50,039 nt of DNA from a virus (Duplodnaviria; Caudoviricetes). Where the stretch lies: positions 1-50,039 of IMG/VR virus record IMGVR_UViG_3300025723_001115. One strand, 5' to 3'. Position 1 is the first letter of the stretch, and each line of letters begins with the position of its first letter. Of the stretch, positions 2,454-37,678 are shown one piece after another. Made by a program: the position numbers and the translations under genes. Under the pieces are notes generated by a model. The model did not search any database. It worked only from the letters and a program-made list of their open reading frames with translations, and was not told where the DNA came from.

Positions 2454-4505
2454 TTATCTATTTCTTATAGCTGTAACTGAGCAACCGCTCGGACTAGTAC
2501 AAGTTTGTTGTAAACTATAAGCATCGCCGTTACCAGTTTGAACTATTGTAGCAGTATTTGGGCCGCCGGCATTGGTTAAACTTACAACTACTCCGTGATT
2601 GTTGCCAGTTTGGCTAACACTAGCATTGTTGCCATCACCGTATAAATTAACTGAGGCAAGATTCAAATTACCAGTCTGTATAATTGTCGATGTATTATTG
2701 TTGCCGTTTAATAAATTGTAGGCCTGATTGTTATTACCGTTTTGATTTACAGTAGCCGTATTATTATTTCCTGAAATGTTTATAATAGCACTATTAGTTG
2801 AGCCTATCTGTGATGTAGTAGTTGTGTTATTATTACCAGCAACTGATAGTCCAAGTAAATTATAGTTACTAGTAGTAAAAGATTCGCTTGCCGTACCAAT
2901 TGAGTTATATGTATAGCCTTGTCCCGCATTGATAGTGTTGTTGTTTCCGCTTAAACTAATACTAGTGTAATTGCCATGTCCGCTTTGATCAGCTTGTAAC
3001 TTATCATTGCTTCCAGCACTTACTTGTGTAATGTACACGCTATTTCTATTAGTACCTGCGTTTGGATTTACAGGAGCATGAGCAGGACCTGTTACTGTAT
3101 AATTCCAAGTTGTAGACGTTGTTGTTGTGCTAGTACCGTTTGTAGTAGTTGTACTGCCATCGCTATAATTTGTAGTTGTTACAGGTGTTGTAGTTACTAC
3201 AGTTGTGGTTGGTGTTGCTGTTCCTGTTGTTGTATATGTTTGGCCGCCAAACAAATAACTGTTATTTGTAGTTGTTGTAGAACCTACACTTGAACTTGAA
3301 CTTACGCTGTCTGTTGTACTAGTACTAGTCACAGTAGGAGCAGGACTTCCTCCACCAGCTGTTGCTCCAGCGGCTAGCGGTGTTGTAGAACCTGTGCTGG
3401 CAAACGCATTGGTCTGTGCTACTGTAGGATTATTAGTTCCATTAATAGTAACACCGTTTGAATTATTCATACCCCAGTCTGTACTAAACAATGTTCCGTT
3501 ATAGTTAGCATTACTAAAAAAGAAATAGCTGTGACCGTCTGATCCTGTACCTTCACTTAATATGTGTCCTACGCCTAGATCTCTTGCTACACTTCCATCA
3601 CTGTTATATAACCACATGTGCCATGGATTTGTATTATCACCTGTGGCGGTAAAAGCAATATATTGTGTACTTGTTGGATATACCGGACTACCAGTATTCC
3701 ATGTTGGTCCAGGACTTTTGCTATAAATTTGACAATTAGTACCGCCAGCGTTAGTACATGATCCTACATTCCATTGTGTGTCAGCAATTTGATTGCCACT
3801 AAATTTCAAATCTGTAAATTGTACACTAGGAGGTGTTTGAACAGGAACTACAGGAGCAGGTGCGCCACCTACTGATTGTGTTGCTTGAGGCGCCGCAATG
3901 GCCGCCATACTAGCACTTGAATTTGGAACGCAAGTAAAAATGCTTGTACCAGCCGCACAGGTTCCCATGTAAGTTCCTACTTCGATACTAGGATTACTAC
4001 TAGATTGTGTTCCTGATAAATCAAAACTAATATGATATGTAACACCCGCGGTTACGTTAATGCCTTGATAGATACCATCATACGATCCTACAGCACCATC
4101 ATACCATTGTCCTGGACTCCAAGATCCTGCCGCACTAGGGTATGTTCCATTTTGATACCATACTCCCCAATCGCTAGGTGCTTGTATATATTGTGTGCCA
4201 TAGTTTGTAGTGTTTACTGACAACCCACCGCCGTATTGTAAGTTACCATTGATTAGTAAATTAGTAGAACTGTTGCCTGCTGTTACACTTGGAGCAGTGA
4301 AAGTCCAAAATCCTGGATCTTGTCTAAAAGCAAATCCAACATAATCTACTCCTGTTGTGGTAGGCGTAAATGAGTAGTTGTAAACTTGTGTACCGTAAGA
4401 ATAATTTAATACGCTACCTAAATAGCCGGCTGGAAGATCTCCTGCTTGAGCAAAACTACTCAAGCAAGCAAACAACGACAATAATCCAGTTATAATCTTT
4501 TTCAT
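2454..4505 (-). CDS. Secreted protein with N-terminal beta-rich domains, Thr-rich linker and C-terminal curlin-like repeats
   Basis: Signal peptide (MKKIITGLLSLFACLSSFAQA). C-terminal N-x-A-x-x-x-Q-x-G-x-x-N repeats. Lies in the csgG operon. Confidence 0.75.
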   Translation of the reverse strand: MKKIITGLLSLFACLSSFAQAGDLPAGYLGSVLNYSYGTQVYNYSFTPTTTGVDYVGFAFRQDPGFWTFTAPSVTAGNSSTNLLINGNLQYGGGLSVNTTNYGTQYIQAPSDWGVWYQNGTYPSAAGSWSPGQWYDGAVGSYDGIYQGINVTAGVTYHISFDLSGTQSSSNPSIEVGTYMGTCAAGTSIFTCVPNSSASMAAIAAPQATQSVGGAPAPVVPVQTPPSVQFTDLKFSGNQIADTQWNVGSCTNAGGTNCQIYSKSPGPTWNTGSPVYPTSTQYIAFTATGDNTNPWHMWLYNSDGSVARDLGVGHILSEGTGSDGHSYFFFSNANYNGTLFSTDWGMNNSNGVTINGTNNPTVAQTNAFASTGSTTPLAAGATAGGGSPAPTVTSTSTTDSVSSSSSVGSTTTTNNSYLFGGQTYTTTGTATPTTTVVTTTPVTTTNYSDGSTTTTNGTSTTTTSTTWNYTVTGPAHAPVNPNAGTNRNSVYITQVSAGSNDKLQADQSGHGNYTSISLSGNNNTINAGQGYTYNSIGTASESFTTSNYNLLGLSVAGNNNTTTTSQIGSTNSAIINISGNNNTATVNQNGNNNQAYNLLNGNNNTSTIIQTGNLNLASVNLYGDGNNASVSQTGNNHGVVVSLTNAGGPNTATIVQTGNGDAYSLQQTCTSPSGCSVTAIRNR

Positions 4506-4678: not shown

Positions 4679-5826
4679 TTGTATGTTTGGTTAATAGTTA
4701 TGCTACCTTGTGGCTTGGCTGTTGCGCCTCCAAAGTTATAAGCATCTGTTACACGATCCTGTGTAACTGTTAATAATATCTTGCTATCGTTGGCTACAGT
4801 AATGCCAGCATAGTTTAATCCACTAGCACTAAGACCAAACCATCCCCATCCTGTTTGATTCAAATTAGGATTATCATTTTTAAAAATAGGAAATATGTTT
4901 GGATCTTCGTCTGGGTTTAGTTTTACAACTACGCCTTTCTTTTGTAAATCCAACAACTTTTGTGTTGCGGCGGCAACTGCGGCATCCGATTCGGCTTGAG
5001 CTTTTTCTTTGTCTGTTTGTTGGCTCTTTTCTTGTTGTTGTGTAGTATTAGCTTCAGCTAGTGTTGGACCGTTTGGATCTGCTTTAGCTGTGTCTTCTTT
5101 TTTAGCATCGCCTGTCTTTTGTGCGGCACTTTTTGCGGCTTGCTGAACAGCCATTCCTGCCATAGTAGTTGGTGGACGTATAATCAAATTATTGCCAATT
5201 GGGGAATTAGATAAATTTACAATAATTGGTGTAGTAGGAGCATCGCCTTCTATTCCAACTATAGTTGCTTGATATGGTTTGTCTAAGTGTACAATATGTC
5301 CGTTGGCTTCAACGTCAATTTTACCACTACCACAAACGAGACCTTTTAGGTTAACGACTTGTACATTTTCTTCACAAGTTGGCATTAACATAACAAGACT
5401 CTTTCCTGTTTCATCTACAGCCATAACAAAATCAGTCCCACGAACCGCAATGGCGGCCGTGGGGGTCTTAATGTTCACAGCGTTTGGATTGTTGTGAGCA
5501 ATATTACCAGACACATATCGTACTGTGCCTTCTGCGGCCTTAAGGCCAAGTTTACCACCTTTTGTTTTAGGGTCGTAAACGAAGTCGTCTATGACTAGTG
5601 CGCTACTTGCCGTTACTCGCACGGTTGTATCGTCTTTAAATGTAATCTTTACTTCGCCTGCTTTTGCCTCTACACGATCATTCATTTCAATGGCCGTGCC
5701 TTTAACAAGTGTTACACTGGTACTGCCACGTTTTACTATAGCAATACCAGTGACATCTGTTACAGAACCGATATCTGCCATCGCTGAGGTTGCGACTAAC
5801 AACGATAGAATGGCTAGATATCTCAC
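4675..5826 (-). CDS. Exported FecR-domain protein
   Basis: Signal peptide, then ITFKDDTTVRV...LVIDDFVYDP and IKTPTAAIAVRGTDF, typical of the FecR domain. Confidence 0.85.
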   Translation of the reverse strand: MRYLAILSLLVATSAMADIGSVTDVTGIAIVKRGSTSVTLVKGTAIEMNDRVEAKAGEVKITFKDDTTVRVTASSALVIDDFVYDPKTKGGKLGLKAAEGTVRYVSGNIAHNNPNAVNIKTPTAAIAVRGTDFVMAVDETGKSLVMLMPTCEENVQVVNLKGLVCGSGKIDVEANGHIVHLDKPYQATIVGIEGDAPTTPIIVNLSNSPIGNNLIIRPPTTMAGMAVQQAAKSAAQKTGDAKKEDTAKADPNGPTLAEANTTQQQEKSQQTDKEKAQAESDAAVAAATQKLLDLQKKGVVVKLNPDEDPNIFPIFKNDNPNLNQTGWGWFGLSASGLNYAGITVANDSKILLTVTQDRVTDAYNFGGATAKPQGSITINQTYK

Positions 5827-35587: not shown

Positions 35588-36136
35588 ATGCTTACTACAG
35601 TTCGTCGTGTACTTCCACACGAGTATGCCAAATATCGTACGCACCTTAAATCTCTTGACGCAGAATCTAAGGTATTACGGTTTGGCTATACAGTTAGCGA
35701 CTACATCATTGACACACTTTGTGACAAGTTTGAAGCCAACCCTGATAAACATATTCTATTTGCTATAGAAAATGAACAGTTAGAATTCGTTGCTATGGGC
35801 CATATTAGCCTAGAAGGCGAGATGGAGTTGGCTTTTAGTGTGCTCAAAGACTACCAAGGACAGGGCATGGGCAACAGGCTAATAAAACGTTGTATCCAGT
35901 ATTGCCGTACGCATAACGTTCTTAAAGGATGTATGGTATGCCTAAGTACTAATAACCGTATCAAACACCTATGTTCTAAGTACGGTATTACAATGGAAAA
36001 TGAGATGGGCGAGACACTTGCTACTATAGAATTACCACAGGCAGACGTGTATACCTATGTAGAAGAAGCTACTAGTGCTAATATGGCTGTGGTAGACTAT
36101 TTTAGCAAGCGTATTACCAGACCACTTTACATTTAG
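35588..36136 (+). CDS. GNAT acetyltransferase
   Basis: ELAFSV..YQGQGMG motif A and CLSTNN. Ends in TAG. Confidence 0.85.
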   Translation: MLTTVRRVLPHEYAKYRTHLKSLDAESKVLRFGYTVSDYIIDTLCDKFEANPDKHILFAIENEQLEFVAMGHISLEGEMELAFSVLKDYQGQGMGNRLIKRCIQYCRTHNVLKGCMVCLSTNNRIKHLCSKYGITMENEMGETLATIELPQADVYTYVEEATSANMAVVDYFSKRITRPLYI

Positions 36137-36722: not shown

Positions 36723-36751
36723 CAAAGGGCCTTGACGGGCCCTTTGTTTTT
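36723..36751 (+). terminator. Intrinsic terminator
   Basis: CAAAGGGCC-TTGACG-GGCCCTTTG followed by TTTTT. Confidence 0.8.
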
Positions 36752-36760
36752 ATGTACAAT
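36732..36760 (+). promoter_or_regulatory. Sigma70 promoter of the tRNA unit
   Basis: TTGACG-17 bp-TACAAT, ending 8 nt before the tRNA. Confidence 0.75.
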
Positions 36761-36768
36761 AAGGTCAT

Positions 36769-36843
36769 GCGCTAGAGGCTAACTGGTATAGCAAGGATCT
36801 CTAAAGTCCGAGACAGCAGGTTCGATTCCTGTCTAGCGCACCA
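36769..36843 (+). tRNA. Amber suppressor tRNA (anticodon CUA)
   Basis: Acceptor GCGCTAG/CTAGCGC, D arm GCTA-ACTGGTA-TAGC, anticodon loop CT-CTA-AA (36801-36803), T arm GCAGG-TTCGATT-CCTGT and encoded A-CCA. Confidence 0.9.
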
Positions 36844-36854
36844 AAGGAATTAAT

Positions 36855-37103
36855 ATGGGCAGTCTAACAGATTATTTCGAACGTACAGGATACAAGAGTA
36901 AATATACAATCGGAGACAGGGTATTTGGTATTTGGAATAAAACTCCATTTATCGGTACTGTGGGCAACGATCGTTGTATCGATGGTGTAAATCCTGAAGT
37001 GGTAGTTCATTTAGACTTACCCATTAAGATTGATAAAGAAATAAAAAACTTTATAATAGTAAAACACAAAGACATCAAACAAAAACTAAAGGAGATAGTA
37101 TAA
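36855..37103 (+). CDS. Hypothetical protein
   Basis: SD AAGGA immediately after the tRNA CCA. Confidence 0.7.
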   Translation: MGSLTDYFERTGYKSKYTIGDRVFGIWNKTPFIGTVGNDRCIDGVNPEVVVHLDLPIKIDKEIKNFIIVKHKDIKQKLKEIV

Positions 37104-37678
37104 TGTCAAAACAATAGATTGAATATGCTTGTAAGAATGTAGTTTTCCATTTTAACAAAAAGCATTTAGAAGACGAGACCATTCCTATGTGGGTCTTAAA
37201 ATTTCATGGGGAAACATTGTATGTCAATCATGTGGATTGTCAGCTACCTTGGAGCACTAAGGAAACGCCTGATAATAGTCACACAAAAGGTAGCATCAAA
37301 GTCAAAGAGTGTTTGCTAACAATCAATGACGCAAACGAAGCTACAATATCAAATCTCACACTAACTGCTAAGTTTCGCTTACGCAATCAAAAACTAGGCA
37401 TTGTACGTATTATGGCACCATATGGTAGTGCTATGCACAAAGCTCTGTTGGCTAACGAATATAAACACGCACCTATCAAAACTATTCGCGGTGCTTGTTC
37501 AAGTTCGTTTATTGTCTGTGATTTGTTAAGCAAGAACGAAGTATTGCTGGCTAAAATCAAATACGATGATTGGCGGGAACTTAAACCAAACGAAGGTTAC
37601 TATCAGGATTATGATAACTTTAAGAATGACATTCCTGTAGATTATGGACATCCTAGTACACCATATGAGTATAGTTAA
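37103..37678 (+). CDS. Hypothetical phage protein with in-frame TAG at codon 5 (amber readthrough candidate, 191 aa)
   Basis: SD AAGGAG at 37089-37094 and TAATG overlap. Reads ATG TCA AAA CAA TAG ATT GAA TAT GCT TGT..., continuous with ORF 37187..37678. Confidence 0.75.

Follow-up and report, generated by a model that had tools for sequence, protein, structure and literature searches.

An early in-frame amber codon and a phage CUA-anticodon tRNA as a likely one-codon switch over a predicted translation clean-up module

Introduction

Why does a phage that uses the standard genetic code carry a tRNA with a CUA anticodon close to a gene whose fifth codon is TAG? This question is raised by IMG/VR record IMGVR_UViG_3300025723_001115 (Duplodnaviria; Caudoviricetes), a linear virus record of 50,039 nucleotides, rated 14% complete, which was analysed over its full length and is referred to as the window. 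It contains ribonucleotide reductase and virion genes, and DNA nearly identical to it was found in freshwater metagenomes. An initial annotation of the window had proposed that tRNA and gene form a single transcription unit and that one gene is gated by amber read-through, either as a tRNA-dependent switch or as an early stage of code reassignment.

Phage suppressor tRNAs combined with in-frame stop codons are known from recoded phages (codes 15 and 4), for which a role as expression switch has been proposed (Borges et al., bioRxiv 10.1101/2021.08.26.457843). XacN1 (PMC5852040), Atu_ph07 (PMC6102473), and RsoM2USA (PMC8504454) resemble the present case in being standard-code jumbo phages with a CUA or UCA tRNA and a Pth2 gene. 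The consulted parts of the three papers name no targets for these suppressors; the XacN1 authors searched for CUA targets beyond annotated gene ends and found none (PMC5852040). Iyer et al. (2021, PMC7824862) assigned jumbo-phage PTH2 to ribosome rescue and RNA repair.

Results

Layout of the locus

Features of the locus are listed in Table 1. Most elements described in the initial annotation were recovered. ARAGORN identified a single tRNA in the window, at 36769-36843, which scored 55.1 bits against Rfam RF00005 with all 71 model positions aligned. The 82-aa open reading frame, the Shine-Dalgarno (SD) sequence, the TAATG coupling at 37103, in which the last A of the upstream TAA (37101-37103) is the first base of the ATG, and the TAG at codon 5 (37115-37117) were all present in the letters. 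The long open frame after the TAG was also found, although the 187 codons originally counted include the stop and leave 186 sense codons.

The annotated sigma70 promoter fared less well. The match TTGACG-17-TACAAT is present at 36732-36760, but such matches occurred in the window at chance level (11 found versus 11.4 expected), its -35 box lies within a terminator-like hairpin, and a better match (11/12) lies nearer the gene, so that a single transcript covering tRNA and gene was unsupported. The tRNA lay more than 500 nt from the gene in 35 of 76 loci, which also gives no support to the proposed common transcription unit. By eye, many homologous tRNAs were preceded by a similar -10 hexamer.

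Table 1. Features of the amber-gated locus in the window.
Feature	Position	Strand	Remarks
Terminator-like hairpin, end of upstream genes	36723..36746	+	10-pair stem with 6 G-C pairs, T run; includes the TTGACG read as -35 box
Sigma70-like promoter match TTGACG-17-TACAAT	36732..36760	+	10/12, chance level alone; ends 8 nt 5' of the tRNA
CUA-anticodon tRNA	36769..36843	+	Short variable loop, G1-C72, A73, A at position 8, encoded CCA
82-aa ORF, passenger	36855..37103	+	No family match; in 14/94 representative loci
Second sigma70-like match, possibly the gated gene's own promoter	37030..37057	+	11/12; 46 nt before the gene
Shine-Dalgarno AGGAG of gated gene	37090..37094	+	SD-like 4-mer at first ATG in 87/87 gated homologues
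Gated gene	37103..37678	+	191 codons given TAG read-through; ATG 37103, TAA 37676-37678
In-frame TAG, codon 5 (gate)	37115..37117	+	3 sense codons between ATG and TAG; 186 sense codons after
Conserved beta domain, no named family	37118..37357	+	FHFNK, PMW, STKETP, TKG motifs; first strand and FHFNK lie 5' of the internal Met
C-terminal domain, generic ferredoxin-like (ACT/RRM-type) fold	37397..37627	+	Missing from many homologues; best Z 5.3, rmsd 3.2, 73 aligned

The letters of tRNA and TAG, the latter suggested for confirmation in reads, were unchanged in four of four public DNA runs covering both, a result that holds for assembled contigs rather than raw reads and for runs that possibly stem from one campaign or from the source sample itself. 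Contigs of two runs shared the hairpin/promoter stretch (36723-36761) and then diverged at 36761 in place of the tRNA; these may point to a repeated element or to a related site that lacks the tRNA.

Conservation of the early TAG

Homologous loci were collected from a first viral scan (41), the best 80 of 428 profile-scan loci, six MAG contigs, three cultured phages, and the window. These 131 loci encoded 94 distinct proteins, to which all homologue counts refer. Each of the 41 closest loci (49-100% identity) showed an ATG, one to nine codons, and a TAG just 5' of the conserved segment, which argues that the TAG did not arise by chance. The same arrangement of SD, ATG, one to nine codons, and TAG was found in 87 of the 94 distinct homologues, with the TAG mostly at codon 3 (66 cases), less often at codons 4 (10), 5 (7), and 2 (2), and once each at codons 6 and 10. 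Reading frame 0 was retained past the TAG in the window and in all 87 gated homologues. True gene ends among the homologues were TAA (58), TGA (30), and TAG (3).

Alignment of the homologues, as suggested in the initial annotation, identified the segment 5' of the internal Met as a conserved N-terminus with synonymous variation: the FHFNK motif was kept, and both synonymous codons were used at each of its positions. The internal ATG at 37187 had been described as lacking an obvious SD sequence, and in line with this an SD-like 4-mer preceded the internal Met in 2/94 homologues.

All 59 database proteins that carry the motif and reach the gate site have Gln there. No DNA locus of the subfamily contained a sense codon at this site, and database entries from the longest contigs were truncated. 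The Gln is therefore likely to be the code 15 output of a gene caller, and reading the inserted residue from database homologues was rejected.

The TAG/CUA form also occurs in cultured phages, namely Rhizobium phage RHph_I1_18, which has a stand-alone, unannotated gene with TAG at codon 6 and a CUA tRNA directly 3' of it, and Sinorhizobium phage Phosso.

Four loci (L039:3311, L063:4329, L098:3119, and L070:4220) contain genes that, by motif, we take to be GIY-YIG/HNH homing endonuclease-like. These genes adjoin the family gene on its 5' side, and their first codons duplicate its gated start, including the TAG; they would consequently be suppressor-dependent too.

Co-occurrence and features of the putative suppressor tRNA

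For 76 of the 94 homologues, the retrieved flanking sequence contained a CUA tRNA, in every case on the same strand and at a median distance of 418 nt (41 within 500 nt, 35 beyond). For the remaining 18, ARAGORN detected a CUA tRNA elsewhere on the contig in eight, a CUA tRNA-like sequence was seen in three, and a UCA tRNA in one. The co-occurrence of TAG and tRNA proposed for checking was thus borne out, with a CUA tRNA on the contig in 87/94. It was not found for six homologues, all on incomplete contigs, one of which spans 150 kb and is rated 75% complete.

The window tRNA folds into a cloverleaf with CUA in a 7-nt loop and a CCA end, as expected of a suppressor tRNA. Arms varied widely among 71 distinct CCA-ending tRNAs, of which 69 had G1-C72 and 62 had C2-G71; position 73 was A in 59 and G in 12, and A occupied position 8 in 20, including that of the window. 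In Escherichia coli, short-armed CUA suppressors with A73 are often charged with Lys and those with G73 with Gln. A tRNA-Pyl has no GG in the D loop, no TTC in the T loop, and a 3-nt variable loop; this identity was ruled out for the window tRNA by its GG, its TTCGA, and a 5-nt variable region in the alignment. The 'Pyl' label assigned by ARAGORN derives from the anticodon.

Some loci deviated from the common form. In L040/L041, L074, and L125, the CUA tRNA next to the TAG-gated gene has an anticodon loop that is enlarged or otherwise unusual (CC-CTA-AC or -AA), and the anticodon of the L040/L041 tRNA was not assignable by ARAGORN. In L245, a UCA and a CUA tRNA (3767-3840, 4767-4842) lie 5' of a gated gene that starts with GTG. 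Two CUA tRNA genes per phage were present in G001 (58841, 108760), W01 (171983, 446731), and L172.

Relocation of the early stop to a Pth2-type gene

In five of the seven ungated family members, the early stop was located in an upstream gene for a Pth2-type peptidyl-tRNA hydrolase. L097, L120, L130, and Phosso have an uninterrupted family gene; one or two genes upstream of it, TAG is codon 3 or 4 of a gene for Pth2 or a Pth2-like protein. Agrobacterium phage Atu_ph07 shares the layout of Phosso, except that codon 7 of its Pth2 gene is TGA and its tRNA, of 75 nt, is a UCA tRNA. As for the other two, L129 has no gate, and L061 has just an in-frame TAG some 47 codons 5' of the motif. Searches with a Pth2 fusion and a helical fusion yielded nine further loci, six with a TAG early in the upstream Pth2-type gene, one with a TAG in both genes, one with a TAG in the family gene, and one fragment; a CUA tRNA was in view at eight of the nine.

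The UCA tRNA of Atu_ph07 is its one suppressor among 33 tRNAs, with no target named in the consulted part of its description (PMC6102473); the module provides a candidate target. On a well-supported branch of the family tree, four neighbours of Atu_ph07 use TAG and CUA. The TGA/UCA exchange is a single case. The tree was built by a quick method from 73 columns, with 60 of 97 branches open, and is unfit for counting relocations; a single origin of the gate may be compatible with it.

Linkage to Pth2 took at least three gene layouts and two fusions, the latter being proteins that join PF01981 to the beta domain (32 and 24.1 bits; cut-off 23). The PF01981 scores of Pth2-type proteins exceeded the cut-off of 23 bits in Phosso (72.9), Atu_ph07 (73.9), and L243 (36), and fell below it in L097 (15.3), L120 (15.9), L244 (22.6), L246 (19), and L247 (21.9). 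The Lys of the Pth2 GK motif is catalytic. The motif was kept in three of ten aligned gated Pth2-like proteins and its Lys was lost in the other seven, which suggests that gated Pth2-like proteins may bind rather than hydrolyse. Genes for an RNA ligase and a phosphatase lie close by in Phosso and Atu_ph07.

Early stops were absent from the Pth2 genes of cultured phages without a family hit (0/7) and, by eye, from the 15 unlinked loci among 18 Pth2 loci. No Pth2 gene was found in the window fragment or in two of seven near-complete relatives; those in the other near-complete relatives were mostly unlinked and ungated. Pth2 is not obligatory for the module.

A helical protein of approximately 90-130 aa is encoded between Pth2 and the family gene in L097 (4616-5005), L120, L248-L250, and L042 (3698). 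In the Phosso type, it forms one polypeptide with the beta domain. It is possibly a third protein of the module.

The gated protein and its predicted role

The gated protein showed no significant match in Pfam, PHROGs, NCBIfam, or the PDB. Searching 1.84 billion representatives with a profile yielded 155 hits, which formed a closed family with four architectures, the two PF01981 fusions among them. The N-terminal 80 residues were modelled as a small beta domain (pLDDT 94.7). Residues straight after the TAG form its first strand, so that initiation at 37187 would truncate the domain. Comparison of the beta domain with the PDB by Foldseek and VIA returned no match (best VIA Z 3.7, which demonstrates neither a match nor a new fold); the weak hits included OB folds and ADP-ribosyltransferase cores, with Z of 2.5-3.7. 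Matches among viral structures were to unnamed or DUF2061-containing proteins, and the ESM Atlas gave no usable match. The modelled ferredoxin-like fold of the C-terminal domain fits RNA or ligand binding and demonstrates neither.

As no solved fold matches, guilt by association is the basis for predicting what the beta domain does. Its context, comprising tRNA clusters, linkage and fusion to Pth2, and nearby RNA ligase and phosphatase genes, points to a likely role in translation clean-up. A different reading accepts the tRNA-dependent gate on the same evidence and regards it as a timer or self-test for a product outside translation quality control, such as a host-takeover, anti-defence, or toxic protein that is wanted late or where the phage tRNA is active, with Pth2 riding along. 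The beta-domain gene is indeed the constant element and Pth2 the optional one, the weak OB-fold and ADP-ribosyltransferase hits would suit such a product, and the nuclease genes inserted in front share the gated start. However, those hits lie under any meaningful Z, and the repeated linkage of Pth2, in at least three layouts and two fusions, argues against a passive passenger. This reading is considered unlikely, though worth keeping in mind.

Read-through by the tRNA versus bypass of the stop

The TAG might also be passed independently of the tRNA, by re-initiation at AUU after a minigene or by leaky near-cognate read-through, the tRNA having another job. The codon directly 3' of the TAG is ATT, ATC, or ATA in 74 of the 87 gated genes, which re-initiation could explain, and XacN1 and RsoM2USA have CUA tRNAs and no family hit. 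In the other 13, however, the codon is GTT, ACT, AAC, GTA, AAA, or AAG, and gated Pth2 genes continue with ACA, GTT, GAA, or AGA. Moreover, the gate of the family gene is TAG, never TAA, in 87/87 cases, and it is TGA where the tRNA is UCA. Bypass of the stop was accordingly judged quite improbable.

Genetic code of the window and its relatives

TAG was the rarest stop codon in the window and four relatives: it ended 3 of 53 long open reading frames in the window, 26/326 and 32/308 in two complete relatives of 355-361 kb, and 15/194 and 15/183 in two others. Rarity of TAG fits an early or relic genome-wide reassignment, to or from code 15, in which the gated gene would be the first or last to be recoded, as in the route outlined in bioRxiv 10.1101/2021.08.26.457843. 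Against this, the stop remained fixed at one position over deep divergence (down to approximately 45% identity), followed the start of the operon when relocated to its first gene, and had not spread in four related genomes. No internal TAG spanned by homologues was detected in the window or three related contigs (two candidate rows were both rejected on reading). Coding density of the window was 0.885 with code 11 versus 0.883 with code 15, and the small gains with code 15 in relatives were matched by code 4. Despite its CUA tRNA, the window was therefore rejected as a TAG-recoded (code 15) phage, having neither widespread internal TAG nor a density gain. In the window and four related genomes no other gene was found recoded, in agreement with the earlier assignment of the standard code; the suggested early stage of reassignment was largely refuted and is highly improbable. 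Still less credible is a sequencing error, a pseudogene, or a true start at the internal Met (37187): this Met of the PMW motif is found in 94/94 homologues and long-contig database entries begin at or near it, but the TAG recurred in contigs of 4/4 runs and in 87/94 homologues, invariant residues lie 5' of the Met, and in distant members its position is occupied by Pro, Ala, Gln, or Cys.

In the window, RHph_I1_18, G023, and G025, scans for SD-ATG-short-TAG-long arrangements yielded nothing convincing apart from the family gene. The window and G023 gave one TAG hit each, RHph_I1_18 three (two overlapped by other reading frames), and G025 four, of which three were judged spurious by eye. G001 gave none, its known gate having been discarded by the filter; the scan thus has false negatives. 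Two RF-1 family (PF00472) hits in 20 genomes were both free of an early stop.

Two further candidates were noted. The GNAT gene at 35588-36136 ends with TAG in frame with the next reading frame; a read-through fusion was rejected and the TAG attributed to chance, since TAA ends four of five homologues, the fifth being identical to the window. In G023, at 258766 (+), an SD and ATG are followed by eight codons, a TGA, and 204 open codons with a phosphoesterase-like motif, possibly a start-site artefact.

Discussion

The same early stop recurs in distant phages on the family gene or on the linked Pth2 gene, and for this reason it is likely to be a natural one-codon switch with predicted control over a translation clean-up module. 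The initial proposal that one gene is gated by amber read-through agrees with the standard code, the conserved N-terminus 5' of the internal Met, and the co-occurring CUA tRNA, and is upheld as a prediction from sequence; that annotation contained neither the Pth2 link nor the TGA/UCA version.

The predicted mechanism can be set out in five steps. A ribosome encounters a good SD and ATG, followed by a stop. With the standard code, host RF1 would by default terminate after four residues. The phage tRNA, presumably charged by a host synthetase, would compete with RF1 and allow full-length protein to be made, as the co-occurrence and the TGA/UCA exchange suggest; the residue inserted at the TAG is probably of little importance. 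Judged from gene order and fusions, the gate would sit on the opening gene of the module, either the beta-domain or the upstream Pth2-type gene, and overlapping stop and start codons would carry its control to downstream genes. These four steps, which constitute the gate, are proposed with high confidence on the basis of layout, conservation, co-occurrence, relocation of the stop, and one matched codon/anticodon change. In a fifth, least certain step, output would depend on how much charged suppressor there is relative to active release factor, much as prfB follows RF2, and the products would dispose of peptidyl-tRNA and rescue ribosomes that stall, suppression at ordinary UAG stops being one source of both. 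The explanation as a whole, a gate opened by the CUA tRNA that ties the amount of protein to suppression, together with a predicted role in peptidyl-tRNA recycling or ribosome rescue, is favoured with moderate confidence.

Parallels with several known systems exist. In prfB, an early in-frame stop ties synthesis of RF2 to termination speed through a +1 frameshift, with no dedicated tRNA. Its resemblance to the present locus is one of logic, an early in-frame stop that would link output of a predicted translation factor to termination; here, in contrast, frame 0 is kept and the gene is accompanied by a matching tRNA. In Streptomyces, the single bldA tRNA licenses genes that hold its rare TTA codon, again a likeness in logic, but that system involves a rare sense codon, a cell, and many targets, whereas the phage system involves a stop codon and would depend on the tRNA competing with a release factor. 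Pyrrolysine and selenocysteine systems similarly match a dedicated tRNA to an in-frame UAG or UGA. They differ from the present case in that the phage tRNA is an ordinary cloverleaf, the site lies in a variable leader rather than an active site, and no recurrent PylRS or Sel genes are nearby.

Recoded phages share a phage suppressor tRNA, an in-frame stop, a standard-code host, and a proposed expression switch; they have many late and lysis genes recoded (Borges et al., bioRxiv 10.1101/2021.08.26.457843), whereas the phages studied here use the standard code with one early stop in one small translation-linked operon. The jumbo-phage PTH2 of Iyer et al. (2021, PMC7824862) is likewise a phage rescue factor, but the consulted portion of that paper describes no gate or partner domain, and the word 'suppressor' is absent from its text. 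No published description of an amber-gated module was found among the openly accessible abstracts and main texts searched. What appears to be new is the link to Pth2, with its two fusions, along with the TGA/UCA case and the examples in cultured phages.

Because the stop precedes the conserved part of the gene, gene callers miss the gated target: RHph_I1_18 has no annotation at its gated gene, and in Phosso and Atu_ph07 the annotated start is an ATG further along the gene. The module provides a concrete candidate target for jumbo-phage suppressor tRNAs previously without targets. It leaves the tRNAs of XacN1 and RsoM2USA unexplained, as neither genome gave a family hit. A conserved phage protein family without a known fold is flagged as a likely translation factor, and since three cultured phages carry the module, phage regulation by stop-codon suppression can be tested at one codon.

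A bolder reading can be offered tentatively: suppressor tRNA, matching stop, a tRNA-handling protein of new fold, and a Pth2 partner might together form a mobile, self-regulating module that senses host termination and feeds back on the suppressor by recycling, charging, or restraining it, with an exchangeable codon/anticodon pair (UAG/CUA or UGA/UCA). If true, this would represent a natural stop-codon logic gate, explain the retention of suppressor tRNAs by standard-code jumbo phages, and provide a stepping stone to full recoding.
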